Shown: positions 1,454 to 63,919, counted from the first letter of the stretch. The stretch: 64,000 nucleotides of DNA from an uncultured Gemmatimonadaceae bacterium (GCA_963790305.1 CAWBOC010000008.1:32001-96000); one strand, 5' to 3'. Numbers and translations: made by a program. Notes: a model not told the origin generated them from the letters alone.

Positions 1454-2745
1454 ATCTCGATGCCGGCGATCTCGTTAGGGTTCACCCAGCTGTCGATGGC
1501 ATCGGTGTCGAGGTCCCGCATGTAGGCGCCATCAATGTAGACGCCGGGCGCGCAGCTTTCGTCCATGGCCCCGCGCATTTGGATCTCGGTGTCGCCGTAC
1601 GGCGTGCGCTCCACACGAAGGCCCGGCACCATTCGAAACAAGTCGGAGGTGACCGTGGGCCTCTGCCGGGCGACGTCGGCGGGCGTGAGATAATGCCCAA
1701 GGCCGTTGCTCCGGCGCTCGTGAAAGTCCTTGAGATTCCGGTCCCGCACCGTCGAAGCGGTCACCGTGACAGTGTCGAGCACCGACTTCACGGTGTAGAG
1801 CGCGCTGCGCACAGGCGCCGCGCCTGCTATCACATCGACCGCTCGATGCTCGGGGAAGTAGCCCACTGCGCGAACCTCGAGCATCCTGGTGCCTAACGGC
1901 GCGTCGGTGAGCGTCCATTCGCCGCGCTCGTTGGCGCTGGTCTCCGGTCCGTCACGAATGCCTACCCGCGCACCGGCCACGGGCGCGCCTTCCACGGCCG
2001 TGACGACGACACCAGTGAGTCTCCCGTCTCCCGTGCGCCGATCGAGCGCGGGACCAATGTACAGATCACGCCTCGCGAATCGCTCCGCAAACACGTCCAC
2101 CTCGACCAGATCCGTACTGTCTGCGCCGCGGCTGGCCATGAGCGCGATCGTCCCCTTGGTCGGCACGTTACAAATGGCGAACCAGCCATTCTCCGCCGTC
2201 GTGACCGCGAGTCGCGGGATGTGGCGGCTGATTTTCCCCGCCGTGAAAGAAAGCTCGACCCACATCCCGACCACCTCGACTGCAGCCGCCGGCACATGGC
2301 TCCGCGCGCCACGAACCACCCCGATGACGACGGCCGCCGTGTCCGCCGCCCGCACTCCGCAGATGGTGGCGCGCAGGCGTGACGGAGACGGGATGGCGAG
2401 GTCGGCACGCACGGGCTGCTTACCCTCTACGTTTACCTCACGCAGCAGGGGCTCGACGCCAAGCGAATCGAGCATTGGATGGAAGAAGCCGAGCATGTAG
2501 CGGCCGGCCGGTACATCCGCGAGCGCGAATCTGCCTAGCGAGTCGGCGGTCACGGTGCGACCCAGCCGTGCCAGACTGTCGGCGGCGACGAGCTGCACGA
2601 TTGCGCCGGCGAGCGGTGCCCGAGCGATACTGTCGTGCACGACGCCGATGACGGTCGTGCGTAGGGCGTCACGGGTGGTATCGGGCGCCTGCGCGGCGGC
2701 CAGCCGGCCCAGCAAGACGACACCCAGCACGGGACAGAACCGCAT
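1259..2745 (-). CDS. Secreted protein with carboxypeptidase-regulatory-like repeats and a TonB-plug-like domain; frameshift near 1440
   Basis: Signal peptide; repeated GVV-D..P.AGA.V and ADSLGRF modules; SDLFRMVPGLRV, CAPGVYIDG, IAGIEIY; shifted frame continues VPAQF..CGSIVIWTK to TGA at 1259. Confidence 0.75.
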
Positions 2746-2896
2746 GGGACGAATCGCCTGGCGGTTGGATAGGAACACCAACATACAGCCGGGGCAGCGA
2801 GGGCGAGAGGCTGGCAATGTGTTTCTTCCCCACCGCCTCCCTGATGGAGCTTTCCGTTCGCATATTGAGCCCCCACACATTTGGAGACCATCCCTC

Positions 2897-3256
2897 ATGC
2901 GCAACCTCAGCAGCGCGGTGCCGCTGGTCGCAGTCGTCCTGGCCGGTTGCGCGGGAACGACTTCGGCACCCACACCATCCCCACAGGCGGCGTCCAACGC
3001 GCGAGGGAGACTGCCGGACGCATCCGCGGCGCCGAAGAACTATGTCTTCTTTTCTCGCGACCACGACCGCATTGCGGAGGCGAGCTTTCTCCAGCACGCA
3101 CAGATCGCCGGGGCGCAGCTCACCTACACGTGGCGGGAGCTGGAACCGCAACGGGATCGCTATGACCTGCAACCGCTCCGCGATCGCCTCGCATTTCTCG
3201 AGCGCCACGGCAAGCGCCTCCGTGCAGCTGCCTCCGCCGGTTGTAAGGTCCCGTGA
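2897..3256 (+). pseudogene. Lipoprotein fragment resembling a TIM-barrel glycoside hydrolase N-terminus, apparently truncated
   Basis: Lipobox LAGC; YTWRELEP..RYD motif; stops shortly after HGKRL. Confidence 0.45.
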
Positions 3257-3620: not shown

Positions 3621-4555
3621 CCGGACGGTCCGGGACGCGCCTCATCGCCGCGGCGGCGCTGATCGGGCCCGCCTCGCTCGCGGTCGCGCAGACGCCGACG
3701 CCGCCCCCGGCGGCGCAGAATCCGTCGCCCATGGTCGAGGCGACGCGCGCGCACGAACGCCTCACCCAGCAGGAGGTCGCGGGCGTTAGGCGACCATTCC
3801 CGGGTCCGAGTGGCAGGCCGGTCGAGCTCCTGGTGCCCGACGGCGCACGAAGGCGCGACGTCATGGACCTCGTCATTCACTTTCACGGCGCCGCATGGCT
3901 TCCGCAGCAGGCGGTCGCCACGGTCGAGGGGCAGCCGATCTTGGCGGTGGTGAATCTCGGCGCCGGCTCGAGCGCATACCATCGCGCGTTCGCGGATCCG
4001 ACGGCGTTCGACTCCCTCCTGGCCGGTGTGACGCGCGAGGTGTCGCTGACAATCGGCACGGCGACACGCACCGGCCGCCTAACGCTGGTCGGATTCTCCG
4101 CCGGACACGGAGCCATCCGCGCCATCCTGCGCGAGCCTCGGCACTTCGCGGCCGTCAATGCCGTGCTGCTGCTCGACGGCATGCACACGTCCTACGTTCC
4201 CGAAGGCACGGTGCTCGCCGGCGGCGGCACCCTCGACACGACGAACCTCGTGGCGTTCGCCGACTTCGCCCGAGCGGCGATTCGGGGTGAGAAGCGATTC
4301 GTCATCACGCACTCGGAGATCTTTCCCGGCACCTTCGCCAGCACCACCGAAACGGCCGATTGGCTGCTGCGGGCGTTGAGTCTCCAGCGCACTCGCGTGC
4401 TGCGCTGGGGCCCGCGCGGCATGCAGCAGCTCAGCGAGGTCCGTGCAGGCAGGTTCGAGCTGCTCGGCTTCGCCGGCAATTCCGGACCGGACCACATCGA
4501 CCATTTGCACGCGATGCCCGAGCTGCTCGCACACACGCTGAAGCAGTCGAGATAA
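3617..4555 (+). CDS. Secreted alpha/beta-hydrolase-fold protein
   Basis: Signal peptide, IHFHG, nucleophile elbow GFSAG, LLDG, C-terminal His. Confidence 0.7.
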   Translation: MTGRSGTRLIAAAALIGPASLAVAQTPTPPPAAQNPSPMVEATRAHERLTQQEVAGVRRPFPGPSGRPVELLVPDGARRRDVMDLVIHFHGAAWLPQQAVATVEGQPILAVVNLGAGSSAYHRAFADPTAFDSLLAGVTREVSLTIGTATRTGRLTLVGFSAGHGAIRAILREPRHFAAVNAVLLLDGMHTSYVPEGTVLAGGGTLDTTNLVAFADFARAAIRGEKRFVITHSEIFPGTFASTTETADWLLRALSLQRTRVLRWGPRGMQQLSEVRAGRFELLGFAGNSGPDHIDHLHAMPELLAHTLKQSR

Positions 4556-5099: not shown

Positions 5100-5603
5100 C
5101 TAACTCGCGAGCGAGATAGCCACCTGCTCCAGCAGGTCCATGCCCTCCTGCATTCCCCCCTCCATCCCCGAGCGGATGATCATGTCGCGCTCTTGCTGGC
5201 TCGAGCACAGCGCACGAAGCGTGAGGATCGTGCGTCCGTTGTTGCTCTCGGTGAACGTCACCACGTTCAGCACCCCTTCCCCGTCGGGCGCCTCCGCCGT
5301 CTCGTAGACCTCGGTCGTCACGATCCGCTCGTTAGGTACGATCTCGCGGTAGGTCCCATGGAAGGCGACCTCGAACGTCCCGTGTGCCAGCATCACGTAG
5401 CGCCACATGCCGCCGACCCGCAGGTCGATCTGCGCGCTCGTCACCGTGCCGCGCTGGCCGGCCCACCAGCGCTTCACCAGCTCGGGCGTCGTCCACGCCT
5501 TGTAGACCAGGTGCTTCGGAGCCGCGAACTCCCGGGTGATCAGGATCTCGGTATCCGTCGGGAGCGTAATGCGGGCTGCGCCGCTACTCGCCATGGCCAC
5601 CAT
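5100..5603 (-). CDS. SRPBCC/AHSA1-like ligand-binding protein
   Basis: ITREFAAP..LVYKAWT.PEL..RWW, DLRVGG.WRY, GMEGGM. Confidence 0.9.
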   Translation of the reverse strand: MVAMASSGAARITLPTDTEILITREFAAPKHLVYKAWTTPELVKRWWAGQRGTVTSAQIDLRVGGMWRYVMLAHGTFEVAFHGTYREIVPNERIVTTEVYETAEAPDGEGVLNVVTFTESNNGRTILTLRALCSSQQERDMIIRSGMEGGMQEGMDLLEQVAISLAS

Positions 5604-6109: not shown

Positions 6110-6628
6110 ATGAGCCGCAACCTCCGTCTCGTTCCGTACGATCCGTCCTGGCCGGAACGCTTCCAGCGAGAAGCGGCGCGCTTGCATAAAGCCATCGGCC
6201 AGTGGGCGACGGCGATCGAGCACGTGGGGAGCACGGCGGTCCCCGGCCTCCTGGCGAAGCCCGTCATCGACATCGCGGTGGCAGTGGCGTCAGAGGCAGA
6301 CGCCGATGCCTGCGTTGCGCCGGCCACCGCGTTAGGCTATGAATATCGCGGACTTCATGGGGATGATCCTCGCCGACGCTATTACGTATTGAACGAGGAT
6401 GGCCGCCGTCTCGCGCACCTTCACCTCTACATCCTTCCGGCGCGCGCGTGGACGGAGCTTCTGGCGTTCCGCGACGCACTACGCACGACGCCGCAGCTCG
6501 CGGCTGCATACGCGCGAGAGAAGCGGCGGGTGGCGGATGAGGTCCAATGGGATAAGGCCGCGTATTCACTGGCGAAGGGACCGTTCATCTCGGCCGCGCT
6601 TGCGCGGCTTCGCGTAGAGACGCGGTGA
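6110..6628 (+). CDS. GrpB/UPF0157 family nucleotidyltransferase-like protein
   Basis: PYDPSWP..F..EA, IEHVGSTAVPGL.AKPVIDI, FRD.LR, Y..EK. Confidence 0.9.
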   Translation: MSRNLRLVPYDPSWPERFQREAARLHKAIGQWATAIEHVGSTAVPGLLAKPVIDIAVAVASEADADACVAPATALGYEYRGLHGDDPRRRYYVLNEDGRRLAHLHLYILPARAWTELLAFRDALRTTPQLAAAYAREKRRVADEVQWDKAAYSLAKGPFISAALARLRVETR

Positions 6629-9664: not shown

Positions 9665-11158
9665 TCAGGCCTCCGTACCGCCAGATCCAGCCTCGACGAC
9701 GTGTTTGCGGCGTTCCCCACGCAGCTGCCGCTCTCGACGCAGTCGGTGCGCCTTTACGAGCATCGCGGTGCCGATCCAGGCGATGATGAGCCCGAGGGGA
9801 ATCGTGACGAGCCGCGGCCAGAATAGCATGAGGAGGGCGATGGCCACGCAGATCCCGCCAAGCGCGGCGGCCGCGCGCGCTTCGGCGGCGCCGAGCACGC
9901 GGTGCTCGGTGAGCATCGCGCTGGCGGTGTTTCCGAGGCGCAGCGCTCCGGCGGCGATCCGTCCAGCGCTCCCGACTCGGCGCCGCGGCATCGAGGGCGC
10001 GCGCAGTATCCGGCGCCGATCGGTGACTCGCGCCTCACTCAGGACGATCTCGGTCGAGTTTTCGAGATCGTCGAGATACATCGCGGCCATCTTCTCAGCG
10101 AATCCCTTGTCGTTCACCGCGACGTCCAGCTCCCAGTTGCCGATCCAGCTCGCAATGTTGAGGTTGCTCGAGCCCACCCGCGCCCATTCGTCGTCGCCGA
10201 CGGCGGTCTTCGCGTGCAGCATGGAGCCGCGCCATTCGAAGACGCGGATTCCCGCCTCGAGGAGCGGCCGATATCCGGACCGCGTGAAGGCCTGCATCAC
10301 TGGAATGTCGCTGGTTCCCGGGACGAGAAGGCGCACGTCGACGTCGTCGAGCGCGGCAGCACGCAACGCCTGCACGTACTCCGGCGTGCCGGCGAAGTAC
10401 GCGTCGGTGAGCCACCAGCGCTCGCGCGCCGCCGAGGCCATGAGGTGCGCGAGGCGCACCATGCGCGCGCTCCACGGCTCACTGGCGACGACACGCACCG
10501 CCATGTTGCCCGCGGGGGGCGTATCACGCACTGCCAGAAGGTCCTCGGAATCGCCCAGGCGCCCGGCGACTCTCCACGCCCGGGCGAAGGCCCGCTCGAC
10601 GTCGTCCACCGCCGGCCCGTGAAGCTCGAGCCCCGTGTCACGCCAGGGCGCTATGCCTCGTTGGGGATCTCCCACCCACTGCTGGCCAACGCACAGGCCC
10701 GACACGAAGCCGACGAGTCCATCCACAATGAGAGACTTGCGGTGGTCGCGGTGTACCCAGCCTAACGGGCTCGAGACACGGAGCGGGTTGAAGACACGGA
10801 CCTCCACGCCGGCACGACTCATCGCATCCCAGAATCGGCGGGACGTCTTGCCAACGCCGCCCAGCCAGTCGTAGAGCACCCTGACGCGCACGCCGTCACG
10901 AGCCTTGGCGCTCAGGGCATCGGCAAAGGCTGTCCCCGACGCGTCCTCCCAAATGATGTAGGTCTCGAAGTGGATCGTCCGCTCTGCGGCAGCGATGGCA
11001 TCCAGCCAGGCGGGATAATTCTCCGCGGCATCCCGAAGCAGGCGAACGCTGTTGCCGGTGACGAGCGGGCCGCCCGCCGCCCGGGAGAATGCCTGCTCGA
11101 GCAAGCTCCGCTCGGATGCCACGCGCGAAGCGGCGTCGGCGACCGCGGCGCTGGTCAT
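9665..11158 (-). CDS. cls: Cardiolipin synthase (PLD family) with C-terminal membrane extension
   Basis: Two HKD motifs, HRKSLIVD and [22 protein letters not shown]. Confidence 0.85.
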
Positions 11159-20632: not shown

Positions 20633-22020
20633 AGCGGCTCACGCCCTTTTTCGCCTTCGCGACGCTCGCGCTCGCCGCGCTCCCCGCGCGCGCGCAGGCG
20701 CCACGCGAAGCACCGCCCGCACCGGGCGCGCCGAAAGACTTCACCCTTGCCGCGCTCCGCACGTTCGCGCTGCCTAACGGGCTCGAAGTCACCATGGCGC
20801 CGTACGGCAACACGCCCAAAGTCGCCGTCCGCCTCGTGATCCAGACCGGGAACGTCGATGAGACCGCCCAGACCACCTGGCTGGCCGACCTCACGCGCGA
20901 CCTGATGCTCGAGGGAACCACCACCCGCAGCTCGCAACAGATCGCCGAGGAAGCGGCGCAGTACGGGGGAGCCGTCGCGTTCAACGTCGGAATGAACGAA
21001 AGCTCTGTTGGCGCGGACGTGCTCTCGGAATTCGGCCCGAACATGGTGCGGCTCATTGCCGACATCGCACGGAACCCGAAATTCCCGGAGACCGAGCTCG
21101 CGCGCCTCAAGGCGAACCGCCTGCGTCAGATCACCGTGTCGAAGAGCCAGCAGCAGCAGCTCGCGAACGAGAAGTTCCTCGCCGTGCTCTACCCGAATCA
21201 TCCCTACGGGCGCCTCTTCCCCACCGAGTCGCAGGTCCAGGGCTACACGATCGACCAGGTGAAGGCGTTCCACGCCGCGAACTACGGCGCGCGGCGCTCC
21301 CAATTCTACGTCGTCGGCCGCTTCGACCCCGCCGCCATGGAGGCGGCAATTCGCCAGAGCCTCGGAGACTGGCAGCCAGGCACGGCGCCGGTGTTCAACG
21401 CTCCCGCTCCGAAGACGGCGCGCGTCATCCACGTCGTCGATCGGCCAGGCGCGGTGCAGAGCACGATCTACCTCGGCCTGCCCGTGGTCGATCCGTCACA
21501 CCCGGACTACGTCGCCCTCCGCGTCACCGACGCGATCCTCGGCGGCTCCTTCGGCTCGCGCATCACCAGCAACATTCGCGAGCAGAAGGGCTACACGTAC
21601 TCGCCGTTCAGCACGATCAACCCGTTTCTCAAGAACGCCTATTGGGCCGAGATCGCCGACGTGACGACGAACGTGACGGGCCCATCGCTGAAGGAGATCT
21701 TCTTCGAGATCGATCGCCTGCAGTCCGAGGCCCCTTCGGCACAGGAGCTTCAGTCGATTCAGCGATATCTGGCGGGGATCTTCGTACTTCAGAACTCGTC
21801 GCGGAACGGCATCATCAACCAGCTCCAGTTCACCGAGCTGCACGGCCTCGGCGAGAACTACCTGCGCGACCTGGTGCGGAAGATCTACGCGATAACACCA
21901 GCCGACGTGCAGCGCATCGCGCGCGAGTACCTGAAGGACGACACGATGACGATCGTCATCGCCGGCGACCGTCGCGTTATCGAAGAGCAGTTGAAGCCCT
22001 TCGGGTCCATCCTGCAGTAA
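20629..22020 (+). CDS. M16 peptidase, non-catalytic partner subunit
   Basis: LPNGL, no HxxEH, LGGSFGSR...NIREQKGYTYS; ATGA coupling to the upstream gene. Confidence 0.9.
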   Translation: MKRLTPFFAFATLALAALPARAQAPREAPPAPGAPKDFTLAALRTFALPNGLEVTMAPYGNTPKVAVRLVIQTGNVDETAQTTWLADLTRDLMLEGTTTRSSQQIAEEAAQYGGAVAFNVGMNESSVGADVLSEFGPNMVRLIADIARNPKFPETELARLKANRLRQITVSKSQQQQLANEKFLAVLYPNHPYGRLFPTESQVQGYTIDQVKAFHAANYGARRSQFYVVGRFDPAAMEAAIRQSLGDWQPGTAPVFNAPAPKTARVIHVVDRPGAVQSTIYLGLPVVDPSHPDYVALRVTDAILGGSFGSRITSNIREQKGYTYSPFSTINPFLKNAYWAEIADVTTNVTGPSLKEIFFEIDRLQSEAPSAQELQSIQRYLAGIFVLQNSSRNGIINQLQFTELHGLGENYLRDLVRKIYAITPADVQRIAREYLKDDTMTIVIAGDRRVIEEQLKPFGSILQ

Positions 22021-41112: not shown

Positions 41113-43647
41113 TCAGCTGCCCAGGCGACGAATGGCCTGATCGAGTGCGTTACGCACGCGCGCTTCCTGCTCCGTCGCACGACGCGCTTGCAGTCTCGCG
41201 ATCGTCGAAGCGTCGCCGAGACGTCCGAGCGCGCCGGCGGCCGCGGCTCTGACGAACGGATCCTCGTCATCCAGGAGGGGATCGAGCTCCCGCACACTGG
41301 CGGTGTCGCCTCGGCTCCCATGCGCCGCGAGTGCATTGATCGCTGCAACCCGCCCAGGCCGCGCTCCCTCGCCGAGGTGCGCGACGATCAGCGCACGCGA
41401 CTCGGCGGAGCGAATGCGGGCCAGTCCTTCCAGGGCAGCCACCCGCGGAAGGTCTCGCCACTCCTCGCGACGAAGCATATCGCGCGCGATGTCGAGCGCC
41501 ATCGCGGAATCGACGCCGACGATCGCTCGCATCGCCGCGGCGCGAACCCACCACGAGCGGTCTCCCGTCGCGAGGGCGCGCAGCCGGTTCGCCGCGTCCC
41601 CATCCCCGGTCGCCTGAGCGAGCGCGAGCGCCGCCGCCTCGCGAACGCGCGTATCAGAATCTCGAGTGGCGGCCACCACGGTGGTGCGAGCCGAGTCCTG
41701 CTTCACGATCGCGCCGAGCGCTCCGACGGCACGGGCGCGAACCATCCACAGGGAATCCTCGCTCGCCGCGAGCGCGACCGCATTTCGCGCCTCCGCTTCG
41801 CGCTCCAGTCGCGGCGCCAATCCGTCGATCGCCTCGATGCGGCCGGTTACATCCGCATCGTGCGCGAGCTGCCAGGCGAGCATGGACGTCGGCCGCGGAA
41901 AGTCGGCGAGATCGAGCAGCCAATCGCCGGCATCCCATCGAATCGACCGTGGCGGCGCCGGAACAGGAATGACGACCGCGGTCGTCTGGCCGCGCACGGC
42001 CGCGACCTGCCTCACGATCCCACTGTCAGTGAGCACCTCGACGTCGACATCGGCGTGAAAGAGTCCGGTGAGCGTGTCGCGCGGCTGCACCTGCACGGCG
42101 GTCAGCGCGACTTCGTTTCGCGCGCTGTCGAACGCCCACGAGACTCGGAACGCCGGAACTCCCGCTCCATAGACCCATTGCGCGAAGAAGCGCGAGAGGT
42201 CGAGGCCGGACGATTCCTCGAGGGCACGTCGCAGATCGGCGCTGGTCACGCTCTGATAGGGATGCGCCCGGAGATAGCGATGGATGCCAGCCCGCAACGT
42301 GGAGTCGCCAAGAACGCGACGCAGCATCTGTAACACCGAGGCGCCGCGCGGGTAAATGTGGCCGCTGAAATACACCTCCGCCGGATCCGCGACCCAGCGC
42401 CCGTAGACGAGCGGGCGGCGATTCCGACGATCGGCGGCGATCGTTGCTTCGTGCGCGTCGCGCCGCTCGATTGCGCCCGCTGCCGTCCCGTGCGCTCGCT
42501 CAGTGAACAGCGCCTCCATGAAGACAGCGAATCCTTCCGAGAGCCATGCGTCGTCCCAATGACGCATCGTCACGTAATCGCCGAACCACATGTGCGCGAG
42601 CTCGTGCGCGACGAGCCCGTCGGAATTGGACCGAGGCTCCGCCCACGCGGGATGCAGGATCGCATCATCCGACATCGTGACGGCGGTGACGTTCTCCATG
42701 CCACCAAACACGAAATCGGGCGCGACGGACTGGTCGTACTTGGACCACGGGTAATGCAGCCCGGTCCACTGGCTGAAGAACTCGAGCGCCCGCGGGGTTC
42801 GACCGAAGCCGCGCCACGTCGCCTCGATCGAGTCTCGATAGGTCCAGTAGCCGAGCGAGACGTCGCGCCACCGATCGCGAAGCACGACATAGTCGCCGGT
42901 GACGACCGACATGAGGTACGTCGACGCTGGCTGATCGAGCCGCCAGTGCCATTCCATATCCCCGCCGGGCAGGCGACGCGTCCCGACGAGTCTGCCGTTC
43001 GAAAGGGCGCGCTCCTTCGCCGGGACGCGCACGAAGAATTCCCAGGTGGTCTTGTCGTAGAGACGATCGACCGTGGGAATCCAGTAGCGGGTGTCTTCCG
43101 CGAACCCTTGCGCCCACACGACGTGCCGGCGGTCGATGAAGTAGGCGCCCCGGGCGGGACGCACCGTCTCATAATCGACGGTGACTTCGACGAGGGTGTC
43201 CGCGGCGAGGGGCTCGGTGAGCCGAATACGGAGCACGGAGCCCTGGTGCGTGAAGCCTAACGCGCGGTCTCGATGCGTCACGCGCTGAATTCGCAGGTCG
43301 ACGGCGTCGAGTGTGATCTCGCTCAGCCGTCCCCGGCCGGGCGCCGCCGCGACCCGCAACGTCGTCGAGCCGACGACGGCACGACGCGTCCAGTCGAACT
43401 GCAAACGGACGATCTGATGCCGCAGATCCTGGGTGAGCTCGGGAACGACTGCCCGAAGCTCACCCGGCGGCGCTGCGCCCCATGTGATGAGCGGGAGCGG
43501 TTGAAAGGACGGCGGCTCGGGCGCCCGCGGCGCCACGGCAACGGTGTCGACGCGCGGCGACGGCGTGACGGGAACCGGAGCCGGCGACGGAGGTGGGCTC
43601 GCGCACGCCGTGACAACCACGGCCACGAATGGAACGGATCGACGCAT
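41113..43647 (-). CDS. M1 aminopeptidase with C-terminal HEAT repeats (lipoprotein)
   Basis: GGMEN, HELAH-x18-E, YPRGA; HEAT repeats (VREAAA.AL, VRAAAA.ALG). Confidence 0.92.
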   Translation of the reverse strand: MRRSVPFVAVVVTACASPPPSPAPVPVTPSPRVDTVAVAPRAPEPPSFQPLPLITWGAAPPGELRAVVPELTQDLRHQIVRLQFDWTRRAVVGSTTLRVAAAPGRGRLSEITLDAVDLRIQRVTHRDRALGFTHQGSVLRIRLTEPLAADTLVEVTVDYETVRPARGAYFIDRRHVVWAQGFAEDTRYWIPTVDRLYDKTTWEFFVRVPAKERALSNGRLVGTRRLPGGDMEWHWRLDQPASTYLMSVVTGDYVVLRDRWRDVSLGYWTYRDSIEATWRGFGRTPRALEFFSQWTGLHYPWSKYDQSVAPDFVFGGMENVTAVTMSDDAILHPAWAEPRSNSDGLVAHELAHMWFGDYVTMRHWDDAWLSEGFAVFMEALFTERAHGTAAGAIERRDAHEATIAADRRNRRPLVYGRWVADPAEVYFSGHIYPRGASVLQMLRRVLGDSTLRAGIHRYLRAHPYQSVTSADLRRALEESSGLDLSRFFAQWVYGAGVPAFRVSWAFDSARNEVALTAVQVQPRDTLTGLFHADVDVEVLTDSGIVRQVAAVRGQTTAVVIPVPAPPRSIRWDAGDWLLDLADFPRPTSMLAWQLAHDADVTGRIEAIDGLAPRLEREAEARNAVALAASEDSLWMVRARAVGALGAIVKQDSARTTVVAATRDSDTRVREAAALALAQATGDGDAANRLRALATGDRSWWVRAAAMRAIVGVDSAMALDIARDMLRREEWRDLPRVAALEGLARIRSAESRALIVAHLGEGARPGRVAAINALAAHGSRGDTASVRELDPLLDDEDPFVRAAAAGALGRLGDASTIARLQARRATEQEARVRNALDQAIRRLGS

Positions 43648-45776: not shown

Positions 45777-46319
45777 GTGCAATTCGAATACGTCATATTG
45801 ATCGAGCAGCAGACCGCTGCCGAAGCGAGAGCGCAAGCACGCGCGGAGGCTCAGGAGGCCGCCGCGCAGGCGCGAGCCGAGGCACAGGCCGCCGCAGCGG
45901 AAGCGAGGGAGCAAGCGCGTATCGCCGTGGAGCAGGTGCAGCGGGATGTCCAGCGGCAGATCCAGGACCAGGTTCAGCAGCGGATCCACGTGGAGCAGGG
46001 GCAAGGTCCAGACATTGTCGTCGGGCGGGGCTTCCCACCACCCTGGGAGCGCAATGACATCCCGCCGCGCGTGGTCGACGTGATCACGCTGTTCGTCGTG
46101 GCGATGGTGATCTGCATCGTCGGTCTCCCCATCGCGCGTGCCGTGGGTCGCTGGATCGATCGACGCGGCTCGCCGCCCGCGGTGAGTGCGGAGCTCGCTG
46201 CCCAGATGACTCGCATCGAGCAGGCGGTCGATACGATGTCGGTGGAGGTGGAGCGGATCTCGGAGGCGCAGCGGTTCCAGGCGAAGCTGCTCTCGGATCG
46301 GGAGAAGGTGAGAGCCTAA
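45777..46319 (+). CDS. Hypothetical single-pass membrane protein with coiled coil
   Basis: GGAGGA RBS plus GTG; Ala/Gln-rich coil, TM helix, IEQAVD..SVEVERISE.QRF..KLL. Confidence 0.7.
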   Translation: MQFEYVILIEQQTAAEARAQARAEAQEAAAQARAEAQAAAAEAREQARIAVEQVQRDVQRQIQDQVQQRIHVEQGQGPDIVVGRGFPPPWERNDIPPRVVDVITLFVVAMVICIVGLPIARAVGRWIDRRGSPPAVSAELAAQMTRIEQAVDTMSVEVERISEAQRFQAKLLSDREKVRA

Positions 46320-46323
46320 CGAC

Positions 46324-46667: not shown

Positions 46668-46824
46668 GGAGCACCTCTCTGTTAGTGAAGACGGAATGAA
46701 CCGAACGACATCATTCTGCGTTTCCGTCTGTATGACACTACGAGAGACGCGCGGGGTTTGTGTCAGCAACGCGACTTCACCAAACCAATACAGTTGCGAC
46801 TAAAACGCTGACGTATGGCGGCCT

Positions 46825-46961
46825 AACGAGGGGTCAGGAGTCAGGGGTCAGGAATCAGGGGGGCTCAGGGAAGAGGTGCCAGGGGAGCAACGCTGTTCAT
46901 CTCCTACAACCCATTCCCCGACACCCCCTGATCCCTGATCCCTGACTCCTGATACCTCGTT
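46825..46961. repeat. Inverted heptamer-repeat hairpin, family E copy 1
   Basis: (TCAGGRR)n ... (CCTGATC/CCTGACT)n with outer AACGAGG/CCTCGTT pairing. Confidence 0.85.
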
Positions 46962-52542: not shown

Positions 52543-53179
52543 TCAACGCCGCTCGAGCAGCGCCAACCGCACCCCCAGCCCAATGAACAAAACGCCAGTC
52601 ACGCGCCTCAACAGGGGCGACTCGCCGAAGCGGCTCCGCGACCAGGCGCCGGCACGGCTCGCCAGTACCGCCACCAGAATGTTGACCAGCGTTCCCGACG
52701 TATTGAACAGCAGCCCTAACGAGAATGATCTGGAGCGCCACGGGACCGCGCTCGGGATCGACGAACTGCGGCAGGAACGCCAGGAAGAAGAGCGCGACCT
52801 TGGGATTGAGCACGTTCGTCAGCATTCCCTGGCCGAACACCGCGCGCATGGAGGCTGGCGTCACCGCCACCTGATCAGCCGGTCCCGCCCGACTTCGCAG
52901 CGCACGGATCCCAAGCCAGATGAGATAGGCGGCGCCGACCCACTTCACGATCTCGAAGGCGATCGGCACGGCGCGCAGCAGACCGGCGAGGCCAAGCGCA
53001 ACCGCCAGCGTGTGCACGAGGCTGCCCGCGGCGATGCCGAGCGAGGAGATGACGCCGGCCGCACGCCCCTCGCCGACGCTGCGCGCGACGACGTAGAGCA
53101 TGTCGGGACCGGGCGTGACGTTGAGGGCGAGCGCCGCCGTCATGAACAGCAGCAGGGTATTCGTGTCCGGAAGGCTCAT
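52543..53179 (-). CDS. LysE/RhtB family amino-acid exporter; frameshift near 52722
   Basis: TPGPD, GAAYL.WLG, NPK..LFF.AFLPQF; shifted frame ends LGVRLALLERR-TGA at 52543. Confidence 0.9.
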
Positions 53180-53186
53180 GCGCCGC

Positions 53187-54570
53187 TCACTCCGAGATGA
53201 CCTTCACGTCGCCGAGGTCGCTTTCGCGCACCGCCGAGTCGTGGCCGAGCACCGTGCGCACGAAGTCGTTCCACCACAACGCCTGCGGCTCGCGATCGCG
53301 ATAGCGATCGAGCTCGGCCCAGGTGCGCTCGTGGATCGCCTTCGTCCGCTCGATCGCATCCGACGGCTCGATCCCTTCGCGCCGCACCCAGCGACGCCCG
53401 ATGTGCGCGTGAAGCACCTCGTCAGCCCAATCGTAATCGTGAAAGTGCGCCGACAGCGCGTCGCCTGACGACTCCGCCGTCTCTTTCTCGAACCGCTTGC
53501 CCGTGTCGGCGGGCATGAGGCTCTGCTCGATACCGTAGAGCATCGTCTGTCGCTCGAGCGGCGTGGCGTGGAGGTTGAGCCGCAGCGCGAAGCTGACGTT
53601 GAGGGGGATGCGCGACCAGTCGATGCCGCGCGCCTCGAACGCGACCGTCCCCATCATCGCGTGACGCGCCTCGTCCCACAGCTGGCGTGAGTAGTCGACG
53701 TAGAACTCCCACGGCTGGTCGGCTCGCTCGACGACGAAGGACGCCATCATCTCCGGCACGTCCATCTCCGAGTGTCCGCTTGCAGAGGAGCGCGAGGTTG
53801 CGCTCATCGGCGGGCACGCCCGGCATGTTGTAGACGAGATGCGGTGGGAAGTTGAAGTTGTACTGCCCGCGGAAACGACCATCGCGCCGTGGATGCATGT
53901 CCGGTGTGAATGGCTCTCGACTACGCGCAGGGGGAAGCGAGGTGCTCGTCGCATCGGTCGCGTCGCCGGCGATGCCGCCAGCCGCATCGAGAAACGCGCG
54001 CAGGTGACTCATCCACGTCTCGGCACGACGACGGGCCTCGGCGTCGCGAGCGCACGCGTCGAGCGCGTGCGCGCCCCAGGCGATCATCTCACCCTCGTCG
54101 GACAGCGCCTGCTTCAGAAGACGAACCGTCGGATGATCGACCAGCGGATTGGTCCGGTCGATGTGCGTGCGGTAGGCAGTCGCCAACGCCGGGTGAGCGA
54201 CGCCGTAGAGTCCCGCGAGCAGCTCGACCGTGTCGCGGGCACGGAGCAGCTCCTCGAGAAATGCATCGAGTGCCGCATCCGGTGCCGCATCCAGACGCGG
54301 TGCGGGATTGCGCATCTCGGTGATGCGCGCCCGAAAGGCGTTGGCATGGCCGACGTCGAGCCACTGATGGAGTGCGAGGCCGCACTTCACCTCCCACTCG
54401 GGCGCGGCGGGGAGGTGTGACACCGCGATCAGCATCAGACGTCGCTCGGCCCAGTGATAGCGAACGAGGCGCCTGACATTCTCCTCGACCGGAAAGCCGA
54501 CGCGCGCCGCGCCAGCGTACGACGCGATGCCGGCCAGCGGGGGGATACCTAACGACGGGATGGCGCTCAC
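53187..54570 (-). CDS. Tandem ferritin-like (DUF455-like) protein; frameshift near 53770
   Basis: C-terminal half has E..., WDEARH, E..., ADEVLH di-metal ligand pattern; N-terminal half is helical and degenerate. Confidence 0.7.
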
Positions 54571-59398: not shown

Positions 59399-62107
59399 AT
59401 GCCGCTTCAGGGGGATCACCACATAGCGTGGCACTCGCGCATGGCCAGCGCGGTGCTCGCCGAGCTCGAGTCGAGCCGGGACGGCCTGTCGGCGCAGGAG
59501 GCCGCCGCCCGGCTTCAGCGGTATGGAGCCAACCGGCTCGAGGTCACGCCGCCGGCGTCCGCGTGGTCGATCCTCGTCGCCCAGTTCCGAAGCGTGGTCG
59601 TGCTGCTGCTCGTCGTCGCGGCCGGCCTCGCTCTGGCGTTAGGCGACCCCGCCAATGCCATGGCCATCGCCGCCGTGCTGTTGATCAACGCGGCGCTCGG
59701 CTTCATCACCGAATTCCGGGCGCGTCGCGCAATGGACGCGCTGCGAGGCCTCGAGGTGCCTCGCGCCATCGTCGTACGCGAAGGGACGACACTCGAGATC
59801 AGCGCGCGCGACCTCGTGCCCGGTGACATCATCTCGCTCGAGAGTGGCCAGTCTGTTCCCGCCGACGCACGGTTGATCGACGCGATCAATGTCCGCGTCA
59901 CCGAGGCCCCACTCACCGGCGAATCGCTTCCGGTGGAGAAGCGCGCTGACGTCGCCCTCGCGGACGACACGGTACTCGCCGAGCGCATCAACATGGTCTA
60001 CCAGGCGACGGCGCTGGTCTCGGGATCGGCGCACGCCGTCGTCGCTGCGACGGCCGGCAATACCGAGGTCGGCCGCATCGGCGGCCTCACGAGCTCGCTC
60101 AAAGATGAGCGGACGCCCCTGGAGCATCGGCTCGATGGGCTCGGTCGTCGACTCGTCGTGGTCGCCCTCGTCGTGGCGGCGATCGTCGCGTTGCTCGGTC
60201 TTTGGCGCGGCATACCGTGGGGCCTGGTGGTGCAAACGGCTGTCGCGCTCGCGATCGCGGCGGTGCCGGAAGGATTGCCCGCCGTCACCACGATCACGCT
60301 CGCGGTCGGGGTGTCGCGCATGGCGCGGCGACAGGCGCTCATCCGCCGGCTGCCGGCCGTGGAGACGCTCGGGTCCGCAACCGTCGTCTGCACCGACAAG
60401 ACCGGGACGCTAACCGCGGGTGAGATGGCGGTGAGCGTCATCGTCGTGGATGGTCGCGAGATCGCGGTGACCGGTACGACCTACGAGCCAACGGGAGAGT
60501 TTCGTGACGGCGATCGAACGATCGGCGCGAGCGAGAACCCGGTTCTGCATGAAGCGCTTCGCATTGGTACGCTGGCGAATCGTGCCGAGCTCGTGCACGA
60601 CGAGGATCAATGGTACCCCGTGGGTGACCCAACCGAGGTCGCGTTGCTCGTGGCAGCAAGAAAGGCGGGGCTCGATCGCGACCGATTGCTCGAAGAGCTT
60701 CCGGAGGTCGCGGCGGTGCCATTCTCGAGCGAGCGACAGTGGATGGCGACGTTCCATCGCGCACGGGATGGCGGGTCGATCGTCTGCGTGAAGGGCGCCC
60801 CCGGGCGCATCATCGAGCGCAGTACACGCGAGCTCACTGCGTCCGGCGAGCGTGCACTGGACGCAGCGGGCCGACAGCGGCTGCTCGATCGCAACCGGGC
60901 CTTGGCCGCGCGCGGCTTGCGCGTCCTCGCGACGGCGCGGGGCACCGCGCGTGACGCGAATGACGACGCAGTCCGTGAGCTCACGTTCGTCGGGCTGGCC
61001 GGCATCTCCGATCCACCGGCGGCGGGTGTGGCTGAAACGATCCAGTCGTTCCGCGAAGCGGGCGTGCGCACGGTGATGATCACCGGCGACCAGCGACTCA
61101 CCGCCGTCGCCGTGGCGCAGCAGCTCGGGCTGGCCGAATCGGACGCAGGCGCGCTCGATGGCAAAGAGCTGGCGACCCTCGACAAGGCCACGCTCACGGC
61201 GAGACTGGAGCACACCGGAGTCTTCAATCGAGTGAGCCCGTCGGACAAGCTGCGCATCGTCGAGGCTCTCCAGGATCGCGGCGACATCGTGGCCATGCTC
61301 GGCGACGGTGTGAACGACGCCGCCGCGCTCAAGAAGGCGGACATCGGTGTCGCCATGGGACGCCGTGGGACCGACATCGCCAAGGAGGCGGCGGACGTCG
61401 TCCTGGCTGACGATCGCTTCTCGACGGTGGCCGCGGCAATCGAAGAAGGGCGGGTCATCTTCGACAACATCCGCAAGTTCGTCTTTTACCTGTTCTCCTG
61501 TAACCTCGCCGAAGTCATCGTTCTGCTCGCGGCAGGCCTAACGGGGCTTCCCCTCCCGCTCCTCCCCCTCCAGATCCTCTGGCTCAACATTGTGACCGAC
61601 ACCTTCCCCGCGCTGGCGCTGGCGATGGAGCCACGCGAAGGCGACGTCATGAGACGACCTCCCCGCGATCCCGATGAGGCGATTCTCTCGCGGCCGTTTC
61701 TTGGTCAGATCGGACTGTACGCCGCATTGATCGCGGCGGCGACGCTCGGAGCGTTCGTCATCGCGCTCGACCGTGGGCCGCAGGAGCGCGCGATAACCAT
61801 CGCGTTCGTGACGCTCGCGCTCGCCCAGGGATTCCACCTTGGCACGGCGCGCAGCGATGGCCCGGTGCTGTCGTGGGACCGCATTCGCGGGAATCCGTGG
61901 GCGTTAGGCGCGCTGGGGCTGGTCATCGCGCTCCAGCTCGCCGCGGTGTACATCCCTGTCCTCGCGTCTGTGCTTCGCACAGTGCCGTTGACGAGGGCCG
62001 ACTGGGCACTCGTGCTCCCGGCCGCGCTCATACCGGCGGTCGTCGGGCAGCTCTTGCGGCTACTTCGTACGAAGGCGCCGTCGCCGTTACTGACTACCGA
62101 TACCTGA
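59399..62107 (+). CDS. Cation-transporting P-type ATPase (type II, Ca2+/CtpF-like)
   Basis: TGES, PEGL, DKTGTLT, KGAP, MITGD, GDGVNDAAALK. Confidence 0.95.
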   Translation: MPLQGDHHIAWHSRMASAVLAELESSRDGLSAQEAAARLQRYGANRLEVTPPASAWSILVAQFRSVVVLLLVVAAGLALALGDPANAMAIAAVLLINAALGFITEFRARRAMDALRGLEVPRAIVVREGTTLEISARDLVPGDIISLESGQSVPADARLIDAINVRVTEAPLTGESLPVEKRADVALADDTVLAERINMVYQATALVSGSAHAVVAATAGNTEVGRIGGLTSSLKDERTPLEHRLDGLGRRLVVVALVVAAIVALLGLWRGIPWGLVVQTAVALAIAAVPEGLPAVTTITLAVGVSRMARRQALIRRLPAVETLGSATVVCTDKTGTLTAGEMAVSVIVVDGREIAVTGTTYEPTGEFRDGDRTIGASENPVLHEALRIGTLANRAELVHDEDQWYPVGDPTEVALLVAARKAGLDRDRLLEELPEVAAVPFSSERQWMATFHRARDGGSIVCVKGAPGRIIERSTRELTASGERALDAAGRQRLLDRNRALAARGLRVLATARGTARDANDDAVRELTFVGLAGISDPPAAGVAETIQSFREAGVRTVMITGDQRLTAVAVAQQLGLAESDAGALDGKELATLDKATLTARLEHTGVFNRVSPSDKLRIVEALQDRGDIVAMLGDGVNDAAALKKADIGVAMGRRGTDIAKEAADVVLADDRFSTVAAAIEEGRVIFDNIRKFVFYLFSCNLAEVIVLLAAGLTGLPLPLLPLQILWLNIVTDTFPALALAMEPREGDVMRRPPRDPDEAILSRPFLGQIGLYAALIAAATLGAFVIALDRGPQERAITIAFVTLALAQGFHLGTARSDGPVLSWDRIRGNPWALGALGLVIALQLAAVYIPVLASVLRTVPLTRADWALVLPAALIPAVVGQLLRLLRTKAPSPLLTTDT

Positions 62108-62179
62108 AGTCACAAACCTGACGTCTGCAGAAGTTGATCTCTTTACCCTACATTACCGGCACCACTTCTCTCCAAGCCC

Positions 62180-63919
62180 GTGCTCGTCCCCAAGCTCGTC
62201 ACGACGCTCCGCGCGTACGACCGCACCCAGTTCTCTGCTGATCTGACCGCCGGCGTCATCGTCGGCATTGTCGCGCTCCCCCTCGCGATCGCGTTCGCCA
62301 TCGCCAGCGGCGTCACGCCCGAGCGCGGACTGTATACCGCCATCGTCGCCGGCTTCATCATCTCGGCGTTAGGTGGCTCGCGCGTCCAGATCGGCGGGCC
62401 AACCGGTGCGTTCATCGTCATCGTCTACGGCATCGTTCAGCAGTACGGCTATGGCGGACTCGCCATCGCGACGATCATGGCCGGACTGATGTTGATCGTG
62501 CTGGGCGTGGCGCGGCTGGGAACGGCCATCAAGTTCATTCCCTACCCGGTCATCACCGGATTCACGAGCGCGATCGCGCTCATCATCTTCTCCAGCCAGG
62601 TGAAGGATTTTCTCGGGCTTCGTATGGGCGACGTGCCCGCGGAGTTCGTCGACAAGTGGCGCGCCTTCGCTGAGGCGATCGCAACGGTCAATCCGTGGGC
62701 GCTCGTGCTCAGCAGCTTGGCGCTCGCGATCATCCTCCTCTGGCCCAAGGTCACGCAGCGCATCCCGGGTGCGTTCGTCGCCCTGATCGTCACGACCGTG
62801 TTGGCGCATCTTTTCAACCTGCCGGTGGAGACGATCGGGAGCCGGTTCGGCCAGATCCCCTCGGGGCTGCCCGTGCCGTCGATCCCCGACATGAATCCGG
62901 CGCAGATTGCGAGCCTCGTGGGCCCGGCGTTCACGATCGCGCTGCTGGCCGCGATCGAGTCACTGCTGTCCGCGGTCGTCGCGGATGGCATGATCGGCGG
63001 CCGGCATCGCTCGAACATGGAGCTGGTGGCGCAGGGGGTCGCGAACATCGCGTCGCCGCTGTTCGGGGGAATTCCGGCGACGGGCGCCATCGCGCGCACC
63101 GCGACCAACGTCAAGAACGGCGGACGGACACCGGTCGCCGGGATCGTGCACGCGATCACGCTGCTGCTCATCACGCTTTTCTTCGCCCGGTGGGCCGCGC
63201 TCATTCCCATGGCGGCGCTCGCGGCGATTCTCGTCGTCGTGGCGTATCACATGAGCGAGTGGCGGACCTTCCGCGCCGAGCTCCGCTCGCCGAAGAGCGA
63301 CGTGGCCGTTTTGCTCACGACGTTCTTCCTCACTGTGCTCGTCGACCTGACGGTGGCCATCGAGGTCGGCATCGTGCTCGCCGCCCTCCTGTTCATGCGC
63401 CGCATGGCCGAGGTGACGAACGTCAGCGTGATCACGCAAGAGCTCGACGACGAGGGAGATCTCTACTCGACCGATGCGAACGCGGTGCGCCGGCGCGCGA
63501 TTCCGAAGGGGGTCGAGGTCTACGAGATCAACGGTCCCTTCTTCTTCGGTGCGGCCGAGCAGTTCAAGGACACGCTCGGGCGTGTCGCGCGGAAGCCGAA
63601 GGTGCTGATCATCCGCATGCGCAACGTGCCGGCGATCGACTCCACAGGCATTCGCGCGCTCGCCGACGTCACCCGACGCACGCGGAAGGAGGGCACCCTC
63701 GTGCTGCTCTCGGACGTCCACGCGCAGCCGCTCGTCGCACTCGGCCGCTCGGATCTGCTCGACGAGATCGGCGACGACAACATCTTCGGCAACCTGGATG
63801 ACGCGCTCAATCGCGCGCGCGCGGAGGTGGGGGAGGCGCCGCTGCCGCCGCCGCCGGGCACGACACCGACGGTGAGGCGCGAGACACCGATCGGCGGGGT
63901 GCCTCAGGCGAACGAGTGA
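62180..63919 (+). CDS. sulP: SulP family anion transporter with STAS domain
   Basis: AG..VG.VALPL..AF, GGS..QIGGPTG, ESLLSA.V.D, TGAIART, GPFFFG, IDSTG. Confidence 0.95.

Follow-up and report, generated by a model that had tools for sequence, protein, structure and literature searches.

The heptamer CGTTAGG, with its octamer CGTTAGGC, is a genuine DNA-level word. This uncultured Gemmatimonadaceae bacterium and some related genera actively maintain it across their chromosomes, even though this takes the rarest codons and, in places, amino-acid changes. Of the explanations weighed here, a self-tag resembling the DUS of Neisseriaceae and the USS of Pasteurellaceae fits best (probability roughly 0.4), with biased uptake as its presumed mechanism.

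Abundance of the word in the window and the genome

The window (the whole stretch of 64,000 nucleotides that was analysed, GC content 64–68%) contained 24 copies of CGTTAGG, 11 on the plus strand and 13 on the minus strand (Table 1). The octamer CGTTAGGC was present in 18 of the 24 and CGTTAGGY in 22. A sequence-only reading of this DNA, made earlier by a model, had given the same four counts, and all of its 24 coordinates were exact. In dinucleotide shuffles of the window, CGTTAGG occurred 2.78 ± 1.51 times with a maximum of 7, and none of 100 shuffles reached 24.

The genome (G000) comprises 4.31 Mb in 13 contigs and is 94% complete. The heptamer was found 1229 times (601 on the plus and 628 on the minus strand) and the octamer 855 times (419/436). 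The expected number of octamers was 67.9, 39.9 and 44.3 in Markov models of order 1, 2 and 3, respectively, meaning an excess of 12–21x and rank 1 among all 8-mers. The excess dropped to 2.6x with order 4 and to about 1x with the maximal-order model because the sub-words are enriched by the same sites. Orders 1–3 are the informative ones, and a maximal-order ranking fails to single out the word.

One-off variants were partly enriched genome-wide (CGTTAGGT 6.4x, TGTTAGGC 4.7x and CGTTATGC 3.7x), as expected for a reader with a graded preference.

The density ranged from 0.19 to 0.43 per kb across contigs and was uniform along genes and across contigs. Word-free gaps of >20 kb numbered 8, with about 3.6 expected by our own arithmetic. 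These gaps mostly had a normal GC content and codon score, and no clear islands were seen among them.

Table 1. Location and reading frame of the 24 CGTTAGG copies in the window (strand of each gene in brackets)
Copy	Position	Strand	Location	Frame on the coding strand
CGTTAGGg	1473..1479	+	gene 1369-2784(-), TonB-receptor-like	CCT-AAC
CGTTAGGC	1892..1898	-	gene 1369-2784(-), TonB-receptor-like	CG-TTA-GG, rare Leu codon
CGTTAGGC	3784..3790	+	gene 3617-4555(+)	C-GTT-AGG
CGTTAGGC	4078..4084	-	gene 3617-4555(+)	C-CTA-ACG
CGTTAGGT	5330..5336	+	gene 5100-5609(-), AHSA1-like	CCT-AAC
CGTTAGGC	6330..6336	+	gene 6110-6628(+), GrpB	CG-TTA-GG
CGTTAGGC	10761..10767	-	gene 9665-11188(-), PLD-like	CG-TTA-GG
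CGTTAGGC	20773..20779	-	gene 20629-22020(+), peptidase M16	CCT-AAC
CGTTAGGC	24518..24524	+	intergenic, between divergent genes 23090-24298(-) and 24681-25691(+)	
CGTTAGGC	26148..26154	+	gene 25688-27310(+), amidohydrolase	CG-TTA-GG
CGTTAGGC	27707..27713	+	gene 27419-29920(-), peptidase M1-like	C-CTA-ACG
CGTTAGGT	29752..29758	+	gene 27419-29920(-), peptidase M1-like	CCT-AAC
CGTTAGGC	31427..31433	-	gene 31343-32164(-)	C-GTT-AGG
CGTTAGGC	36579..36585	-	gene 34400-37069(-), helicase-like	CG-TTA-GG
CGTTAGGC	39765..39771	-	gene 39404-40483(-), phosphofructokinase	CCG-TTA-GGC (Pro-Leu-Gly)
CGTTAGGC	43256..43262	-	gene 41113-43647(-), peptidase M1	CG-TTA-GG
CGTTAGGC	46315..46321	-	end of gene 45765-46319(+)	CC-TAA-CG on the + strand, TAA stop
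CGTTAGGC	46822..46828	-	intergenic	
CGTTAGGg	52715..52721	-	gene 52583-53200(+)	CCT-AAC
CGTTAGGT	54548..54554	-	intergenic, just beyond gene 54584-55369(-)	
CGTTAGGC	59637..59643	+	gene 59399-62107(+), P-type ATPase	CG-TTA-GG
CGTTAGGC	61537..61543	-	gene 59399-62107(+), P-type ATPase	C-CTA-ACG
CGTTAGGC	61902..61908	+	gene 59399-62107(+), P-type ATPase	GCG-TTA-GGC
CGTTAGGT	62367..62373	+	gene 62180-63919(+), SulP transporter	GCG-TTA-GGT

Reading frames and codon usage

Gene positions in the window and in the genome are our own gene calls. Within genes, 20 of the 24 window copies were located: 10 as CG-TTA-GG, 5 as CCT-AAC, 3 as C-CTA-ACG and 2 as C-GTT-AGG, which are the four frames that had been named from the sequence alone. 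One further copy provided a TAA stop and three were intergenic. A tandem GCGCTAGAG repeat comes after the copy at 46315..46321.

Genome-wide, the word occurred in all four stop-free frames (436, 208, 199 and 76 copies); 221 copies were intergenic and 89 overlapped gene ends. In a separate count, 108 genes had their stop codon supplied by the word. No copy was found in the stop-creating frame of any called gene, which is true by construction of the gene caller.

We compared the genic copies with a codon-preserving null, in which synonymous codons were shuffled inside each gene (40 shuffles). The word was found 920 times in genes compared to 109 times in this null. On the coding strand, CGTTAGG occurred 513 times (null: 30.7 ± 5.0) and CCTAACG 407 times (null: 78.4 ± 7.7), and the two orientations of the octamer occurred 386 and 294 times (null: 13.3 and 29.5). 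The genic excess was 8x for the 7-mer and 16x for the 8-mer. The over-representation claimed in the sequence-only reading thus survives both the Markov (orders 1–3) and the codon-shuffled nulls.

The use of rare codons, also claimed there, was seen for TTA. It made up 0.87% of Leu codons overall; where the context was NCG-Leu-GGN, its share rose to 20% (437 of 2157). The genome has 1046 TTA codons, and 437 of them sit in the word.

Flanks, polarity and spacing

The word stands alone: the 20 bp on either side of it carried no information genome-wide, and only one inverted pair (GCCTAAC..GTTAGGC) was present in the whole genome. Neighbouring copies had the same orientation in 615 cases and opposite orientations in 601.

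In bins of positive GC skew, 141 copies were forward and 123 reverse; where the skew was negative, the numbers were 168 and 210. Only 53–56% of the copies follow the sign of the GC skew, and this agreement is explained by gene-strand bias. Moreover, word orientation along contig C5 showed no V-shape. Both results agree with the earlier statement that the word lacks a polarity of the Chi or KOPS type.

Distances of <400 bp between neighbours were found 65 times (133 expected), meaning that close pairs were avoided and that repulsion was short-range only. In G016, a dense relative with 1.76 copies per kb, the spacing was more even than random (CV 0.78), with deficits both below 100 bp (9 vs. 27) and above 1.6 kb (4 vs. 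9).

Conservation and distribution among relatives

Conservation was assessed between G000 and G004, two species of one genus, over 256 kb of alignment at 84.3% identity. The word was conserved at 52 of 65 sites (80%) compared to 33.9% for all 7-mers; no other word that occurred 40 times or more reached this value. Where the two genomes differed in the presence of the word in a gene, the difference was synonymous at 18 of 24 sites.

In alignments of single genes, the word was seen to be gained either by two synonymous changes or by substitutions at variable residues. For the copy at 62367, the same Leu is encoded by CTG, CTC or CTT in all 12 other aligned genomes, meaning that this copy is a lineage-specific synonymous change of two or three bases; codon positions 1 and 3 were changed and, in 8 of the 12 comparisons, the next codon also went from GGC, GGG or GGA to GGT. 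In phosphofructokinase, the Leu of the copy at 39765 lies at a variable position, where relatives have K, V, R and other residues, and the word was present there in only 3 of the 65 genes compared. The P-type ATPase copies at 59637 and 61537 were each common to five of the seven aligned genomes of the genus. The copy at 61902 was common to three of the seven; two others had GCG-CTA-GGC and two had Val codons. The proposal that the word is a signal at the DNA level, and not an effect of protein or codon usage, is supported by the codon null, the TTA context, these alignments and the conservation between species.

Of 31 relatives, each assembled independently, 12 were enriched in the word. All nine genomes of the genus carried 382–1006 copies of CGTTAGGC. 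Outside the genus, G012, G016 (6360 octamers) and G030 were also rich, and 19 other relatives had 6–65 copies. In a scan of the phylum, 17 of 401 genomes reached 400 copies or more. These 17 came from two families of a single order, and the 135 genomes of families f4–f12 had no more than 70 copies each. Wherever there was enrichment, the identical word was used. Its distribution was patchy at genus level, with densities of up to 1.8 per kb, and contrasts were found even within genera: G287 had 66 copies and three genomes of the same genus (G235, G291 and G395) had 3479–4141, and the pair G147 and G206 showed the same kind of contrast. On a single-gene tree, at least six gains or losses within one order were needed.

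A proposed self-tag for DNA uptake

On the preferred reading, the word would serve self-recognition, as a tag like DUS and USS. Fragments that bear the word would be preferred by some machine that handles DNA; most plausibly, this would be uptake that depends on a type IV pilus and ComEC, followed by homologous recombination. Word-bearing alleles would then replace word-less ones until roughly one copy stood in each fragment-sized stretch. We infer uptake bias as the driving force from the over-representation, frame independence, lack of polarity, repulsion, conservation and patchiness described above.

DUS and USS resemble the word in several respects. They too are short, non-palindromic words with hundreds to thousands of copies divided equally between the strands, and they lie in genes in several frames at a cost in codon usage. 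They are likewise conserved between species and restricted to some lineages, and their one-off variants are partly enriched. Their spacing is more even than chance, as is that of the word in G016; in G000, the short-range repulsion alone was seen. The differences begin with phylum and word. The density of DUS and USS is about 1 per kb; that of G000 is several-fold lower (about 0.2–0.28 per kb; heptamer: 0.28 per kb), and relatives have up to 1.8 per kb. CGTTAGGC has neither the inverted-pair terminators of Neisseria DUS nor the extended AT-rich flank of Haemophilus USS. Furthermore, no ComP-type receptor was detected, and the word is patchy among genera that all have pilus and ComEC genes.

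An uptake sequence was one of the functions proposed in the sequence-only reading. It is the best-fitting candidate, and the machinery is present: G000 encodes ComEC, four secretins, PilB/PilT-type ATPases, PilM and pilins. This machinery is universal in the order. PilM was present in 46 of 46 genomes and ComEC in 45 of 46, whether word-rich or word-poor, and the two therefore do not account for the patchy distribution of the word. The ComP_DUS receptor family (PF16732) had no match in G000 or in four other genomes of the genus. Elsewhere, the matches were weak and limited to the pilin N-terminus, in word-rich and word-poor genomes; one of 46 genomes was above the cut-off, and it was word-poor. 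Among minor-pilin clusters next to pilM (41 genomes: 20 rich and 21 poor), no widely covered family was specific to word-rich genomes, in a clustering of ORFs that was noisy (antisense ORFs; all pilins in one cluster). The word-poor G287 had the same duplicated minor-pilin set as G000.

Competence is not known for this phylum. A full-text search returned no paper with both 'Gemmatimonad' and 'uptake sequence' and none with the 8-mer CGTTAGGC as a word. Among the matches listed for GTTAGGC, primers and unrelated sequences were found.

Only tentatively do we go one step further: the word may be a true uptake or self-recognition tag, the first outside the Proteobacteria, which is read by a non-ComP receptor and reaches Neisseria-like densities in uncultured soil Gemmatimonadales. 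If so, its identity with the commonest attC box of the order could mean that gene cassettes ride on the same uptake preference.

Alternative explanations

All sequence features that support an uptake tag follow equally from selection for the binding sites of a chromosomal protein. The word could be the site of such a protein (a nucleoid-structuring, repair or self-versus-foreign factor that works in either orientation), with selection keeping a minimum density. The even spacing in G016, the short-range repulsion in G000, the strong conservation, the uniform density along genes and contigs and the equal frequency of the two orientations are all compatible with this. A nucleoid-protein site was also among the functions proposed in the sequence-only reading. 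We consider this explanation less likely than an uptake tag. The analysis turned up no candidate protein. Chi and KOPS/AIMS, which are asymmetric sites known to be abundant, resemble the word as over-represented 7–8-mers on the core chromosome, but they are co-oriented with replication and the word is not; its enrichment is also much higher. Specific nucleoid proteins have tens to hundreds of sites, far below the thousands of octamers in G016. A 10-fold range of density between genera that use the same word would be odd for a structural requirement.

That the genome-wide copies are recognition boxes of the integron integrase IntI (secondary sites for recombination and cassette capture, or raw material for new cassettes) is improbable, despite the match in sequence. 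GTTAGGC fits the integron core GTTRRRY of attC and attI sites, as had been pointed out before; by our arithmetic, a 7-mer matches this core on either strand by chance in about 0.2% of cases. Together with the preceding C, it is identical to the commonest attC R' box in the arrays of relatives, in a set of 32 sites from G021, G019 and G029 that were collected by searching for the word. G000 itself has an integron integrase (449 bits; cut-off 265), and its array comprises at least 32 attC sites. This formal match is the part of the earlier suggestion that holds. In the array of G000, however, the boxes were GTTCTGC (16), GTTATGC (12), GTTATAC (2) and GTTCTGT (1), and GTTAGGC accounted for only 1 of 32. 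The genome-wide copies are isolated: apart from the single inverted pair, they have no partner box and no flank signal, and they lack the R''/L''/L'/R' hairpin anatomy of attC. An HMM of f2-type attC sites gave nothing significant on G000 (best E-value: 0.79). The common attC variants GTTAGAC and GTTAGCC were even depleted genome-wide (0.2x and 0.4x).

Moreover, the integrase does not track the word. It was present in 25 of the 31 relatives, and most of the word-poor ones were among these 25. Searches of the word-rich G012 (93% complete), G125 (99%), G395 (95%) and G005 (89%) did not find it, and in the word-rich G016 there were fragments only. The share of GTTAGGC among attC sites, tallied by eye over the first 12 repeat peaks per locus, was unrelated to richness (rich: G317 4/7 and G298 1/11; poor: G018 3/9, G037 1/4, G062 0/7 and G014 0/7). 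Of 20 integrase flanks, many of which ran into contig ends, 17 were scanned and three stubs of <250 bp were left out; six of the 17 yielded readable arrays.

Slightly less probable still is a link to DNA modification or biased mismatch repair, where a methyltransferase would mark the word and repair would restore or create it. The model for this is HIP1 (GCGATCGC) of cyanobacteria, also an 8-mer, which is likewise hyper-abundant whatever the frame, more conserved than expected and patchy across genera. HIP1 is a palindrome that is linked to cognate methyltransferases, and its function has stayed unexplained for decades; CGTTAGGC is not palindromic, and neither a co-varying methylase nor a Vsr was found. 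G000 does encode a 1021-aa N6 methylase of the Eco57I/MmeI type, a class whose members read asymmetric sites of 6–8 bp, and a D12-class methylase. Six-frame searches of the 94% complete genome did not detect Vsr, a C5 methylase or an N4/N6 beta-class methylase (PF01555), and PF02384 matched only the MmeI-type gene. This gene was present in 45 of 46 genomes, word-rich or word-poor, and its tree follows taxonomy, with 6–9 changes of the trait needed. The D12 methylase was present in the word-poor G287 and was not detected in G016 and G298, which are the densest genomes. The link to a methyltransferase proposed in the sequence-only reading is not supported; neither N6 candidate tracks the word.

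An artefact could stem from systematic miscalling of bases at a modified motif, from misassembly, or from composition or codon usage. Nothing was found in favour of this explanation, and it is practically negligible, given that the same word is enriched in the independently assembled relatives and in further genera, that orthologous sites are shared between genomes, that the enrichment holds under codon-preserving and Markov nulls, and that only 108 genes end at the word, with downstream frames that look non-coding about as often as those at other stops (coding-like score in 8% and 4% of cases, respectively). A weak check at read level points the same way: none of the best-supported 40 of 1633 contig differences fell within the 8 sites covered, where the contigs were those of relatives at 90–99% identity and the four soil-metagenome runs contained 0.17, 0.11, 0.09 and 0.07 of the sampled words of the stretch.

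Significance

To our knowledge, only two families, both proteobacterial, are known to have self-tags of the uptake type. The word described here makes a third hyper-iterated one and comes from a soil phylum with hardly any cultured members. It overrides codon bias and changes proteins. In practical terms, it marks lineages and causes rare-codon artefacts in analyses of codon usage and gene transfer. The contrasts between rich and poor genomes within genera make the protein that reads it findable by comparative genomics and pull-down. If uptake is the force behind the word, this would mean frequent, kin-biased transformation among soil Gemmatimonadaceae.

Abundance and form of the word

All 24 positions of CGTTAGG/CCTAACG that the sequence-only reading had counted by hand in the window were correct (11 forward, 13 reverse), and the sequence contexts gave the same 18 copies of CGTTAGGC and 22 of CGTTAGGY. 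Dinucleotide shuffles of the window held 2.78 ± 1.51 copies, and 24 copies were reached in none of 100 shuffles. The assembly containing the window (G000; 4.31 Mb, 13 contigs, 66% GC) had 1229 heptamers (601 forward, 628 reverse) and 855 copies of CGTTAGGC (419/436 by strand), and the control word read backwards reached 151/146. The window phosphofructokinase was 91–92% identical to its counterparts in Gemmatimonadaceae MAGs, and almost all of its 65 closest records bear Gemmatimonad- names, confirming the phylum.

Markov models of orders 1, 2 and 3 predicted 67.9, 39.9 and 44.3 copies of CGTTAGGC, which ranked first among all 8-mers at each of these orders, so the over-representation claimed for the window holds genome-wide. 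At order 4, the excess dropped to 2.6×, and in the maximal-order model CGTTAGGC was not conspicuous among 8-mers, because GTTAGG, TTAGGC and other sub-words are inflated by the same sites.

Other top-ranked words of the genome were explained by tandem micro-repeats: (GGAATGC)n yields AATGCGGA 628 times (221 in called genes), and (GCGCTAGAG)n yields GCGCTAGAGGC 173 times (19 in called genes). A nonamer run and a dispersed small repeat of ~60 bp (76–87% identity) also lie in the window (see the table); many copies of the latter were found in the genomes G002 and G007.

Positions 2–7 (GTTAGG) were near-strict, the best single change there being CGTTATGC (3.7×). The preference was C > T > G at both the first (12.6×, 4.7×, 2.6×) and the last position (12.6×, 6.4×, 3.0×). 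The 20 bases flanking the G000 copies on either side carried no information; hence, the word stands alone and is not a piece of a larger repeat. Two relatives showed related words, which may be dialects: CGTTTGGC in G012 (39 vs 7.5 expected in 160 kb, L103–L110), and CGTCAGGC (29 vs 6.5 expected) and CGTTATGC (9 vs 0.6) in a 69-kb sample of G030 (L111–L118).

Coding context

A self-trained caller predicted 3635 genes in G000, covering 85% of the genome. The word occurred in four frames, as claimed: xCG-TTA-GGx (436 copies), CCT-AAC-G (208), C-CTA-ACG (199) and C-GTT-AGG (76). A further 221 copies were intergenic and 89 overlapped a gene end. The codons used are rare, as had also been proposed, and strongly raised in word contexts. 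TTA made up 0.87% of Leu codons overall, 20% in NCG-Leu-GGN (437/2157) and 27% in NCG-Leu-GGC (328/1232); 437 of all 1046 TTA codons lay inside the word. CTA-ACG filled 199 of 2055 NNC-Leu-Thr contexts (CTA overall 1.4%), and CCT-AAC filled 208 of 888 Pro-Asn-G contexts (CCT overall 8%).

The enrichment survived a codon-preserving null, in which synonymous codons were permuted within each gene (40 rounds). In the two orientations, genic heptamers numbered 513 vs 30.7 and 407 vs 78.4, and octamers 386 vs 13.3 and 294 vs 29.5. This null is conservative because the reshuffled rare codons stem largely from the word.

In a separate count, the word supplied the stop codon of 108 genes (TAG 60, TAA 48). 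The frame 3′ of such stops was coding-like in 8% of cases vs 4% at other stops; thus, there was no sign of large-scale gene breakage. The density was level along the gene length, and the most codon-biased quartile of genes was somewhat poorer in the word (0.185 per kb vs 0.24–0.29 in the other four bins).

Orientation and spacing

Orientation was independent of replication, in line with the lack of Chi- or KOPS-like polarity suggested from the window. Where GC skew was positive (49 bins of 20 kb), 141 copies were forward and 123 reverse; where it was negative (68 bins), the counts were 168 and 210. The correlation between word orientation and GC skew (rho 0.19) was not above that with gene-strand bias. 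On contig C5, cumulative GC skew formed a clean V and cumulative word orientation showed no matching V. An identity with Chi or KOPS was accordingly not supported. The skew switch inside the window (see the table) could mark where replication starts or ends, or just a change in gene strand.

Among adjacent copies in G000, 615 pairs shared their orientation and 601 did not. Neighbour distances below 400 bp were depleted (65 vs 133 expected; overall CV 1.02), and a single inverted GCCTAAC..GTTAGGC pair 30–150 bp apart was found in the entire genome. In G016, a dense relative, 174 heptamers in 98.8 kb were spaced with a CV of 0.78, with deficits below 100 bp (9 vs 27) and above 1.6 kb (4 vs 9).

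Evolution of the sites

We compared G000 with G004, a second species of its genus (296 kb of G004 sampled; 256 kb aligned at 84.3% identity). The two had 52 sites in common, 13 were found in G000 only and 21 in G004 only. The fraction of G000 sites kept was 80%, the top value among heptamers seen 40 times or more; it was 33.9% over the full set of 252,519 heptamers and 36.3% over those of equal A+T count. Discordant sites numbered 34; the 24 that were genic and gap-free comprised 18 synonymous and 6 amino-acid-changing differences.

Alignments of the window ATPase and SulP genes showed sites common to subsets of the genus. At one site, G000 has GCG-TTA-GGT and the same Leu is CTG, CTC or CTT in 12 of 12 others; another is TTA in three genomes, the intermediate CTA in two and a Val codon in two. 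The phosphofructokinase site (window 39765) places Leu where most of 65 relatives have K, V, R, T, I or A, so the word can also enter variable protein positions.

Distribution across the phylum

All nine genomes of the genus were rich in CGTTAGGC (382–1006 copies), as were G012 (605), G016 (6360 in 5.1 Mb) and G030 of another family (345). The remaining 19 relatives had 6–65 copies, under the backwards-word control. In a survey of 401 genomes of the phylum, each at least 80% complete, 17 had 400 copies or more: 13 in family f1 (genera g1, g29, g32, g36, g38, g40, g41 and g43) and 4 in family f2 (genus g71). The 135 genomes in families f4–f12 all had 70 or fewer. Genus g38 contained three genomes with 3479–4141 copies and one, G287, with 66. 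On a universal-protein tree of the order (one gene, a proxy for the species tree), at least six changes of word richness are needed. In 200 kb sampled from the word-poor G010, hyper-frequent words were absent altogether. The tallies count the unpublished G015, G079, G118 and G198 as word-poor, and no result depends on them alone.

Coordinates of features in G000 and in the window
Feature	Location	Details
Chromosomal integron	G000:C9:694912-724000	Outside window; integrase and at least 32 attC sites of 130–139 bp
Integrase-less set of 7 attC-like matches	G000:C8:5984-27301	Ends ~4.7 kb upstream of window start
Lone attC-like match	G000:C7:274397
MmeI-type N6 methylase	G000:C7:233022-236087
Ser/Thr kinase	G000:C7:243255-246365	1036 aa; 7 kb downstream of the methylase
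pilM-upstream loci	G000:C11:31800-39389	Two tandem sets of small pilin, ~300-aa pilin and ~350-aa protein
GC-skew switch	window ~40000-44000	Cumulative minimum and sign change (4-kb resolution)
Nonamer run	window ~46325-46360	Immediately after word copy at 46315
Dispersed small repeat	window ~62076-62140	ATPase-SulP spacer
Further copies of this repeat, e.g.	G000:C9:433087, C10:101998, C9:985246, C3:128249, C3:32865

Alternative explanations

A word bound by a chromosomal protein is predicted to have almost identical sequence features. We regard this reading as rather unlikely, and it is the alternative that survives best.

A link to integrons is improbable. The proposed fit to the integron core stands insofar as the word equals a common attC box of the order: in G021, G019 and G029, the few copies lay at the 3′ ends of classical 90–103-bp attC sites, in one orientation and ~550 bp apart. 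G000 itself encodes an integrase (449 bits) with a cassette array 3′ of its gene, and had 40 attC-like matches (32 on C9, 7 on C8, 1 on C7). However, its C9 array has R″ GCA(T/G)AAC and R′ GTT(C/A)TGC, and the 32 matches reaching the model 3′ end carried GTTCTGC (16), GTTATGC (12), GTTATAC (2), GTTCTGT (1) and GTTAGGC (1). Other arrays mixed GTTAGAC, GTTAGCC, GTTATGC, GTTAGGT and GTTAGGC irrespective of word richness; counted by eye, GTTAGGC made up 4/7 and 1/11 boxes in the word-rich G317 and G298, and 3/9, 1/4, 0/7 and 0/7 in the word-poor G018, G037, G062 and G014. The attC-frequent GTTAGAC and GTTAGCC were depleted across G000. Integrase was present in 25/31 and 21/30 genomes (two surveys), word-rich and word-poor alike; it was not found in the word-rich G012, G125, G395 and G005, and G016 had fragments only. 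The match is therefore read as a coincidence or an indirect link.

A methylase- or repair-linked word is slightly more improbable still, and the suggested HIP1-like methyltransferase was not supported. Six-frame searches of G000 found no Vsr, C5 methylase or PF01555 methylase. Of the 3635 predicted proteins, 33 passed a motif pre-screen. Pfam searches with 18 of these identified a D12-class methylase and an Eco57I/MmeI-type methylase of 1021 aa; the latter was the only PF02384 match. The MmeI-type gene occurred in 45/46 genomes of the order irrespective of word richness, with a tree that mirrors the taxonomy. The D12 gene was present in the word-poor G287 and the word-rich G235, and was not found in G016, G298 or G010. 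The wide conservation and apparently vertical inheritance of the MmeI-type gene would be uncommon among restriction- or BREX-like genes, and the gene could represent a core epigenetic system or one akin to Pgl.

An artefact was rejected as practically negligible, as the word is common to independent assemblies, at orthologous sites too.

Uptake machinery and preferred reading

G000 encodes ComEC, four secretins, several PilB/PilT-type ATPases, PilM, two PilA-like pilins and two minor-pilin sets upstream of pilM; a weak ComEA-like HhH motif adjoins the pilus ATPase genes. The same pilin-set duplication was seen in the genus, G030, G395 and the word-poor G287. Across the order, PilM was present in 46/46 and ComEC in 45/46 genomes. 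The ComP_DUS family had no genuine member in the genomes searched, and no gene family in pilM-adjacent clusters was peculiar to word-rich genomes (20 rich vs 21 poor). Hence, the machinery is permissive. In full-text searches of the literature, CGTTAGGC was not found as a word, nor was any text joining 'Gemmatimonad' with 'uptake sequence'.

By analogy, the sequence features fit DUS/USS (the uptake sequences of Neisseriaceae and Pasteurellaceae) better than any other known system. Like these, the word is asymmetric, unpolarised and frame-independent, avoids close pairs, is conserved above background, has graded one-off variants and is limited to certain lineages. Its density reaches 1.8 per kb in relatives. 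On this comparison, we tentatively propose, with a probability of roughly 40%, that the word may serve these bacteria as an uptake-type self-tag.
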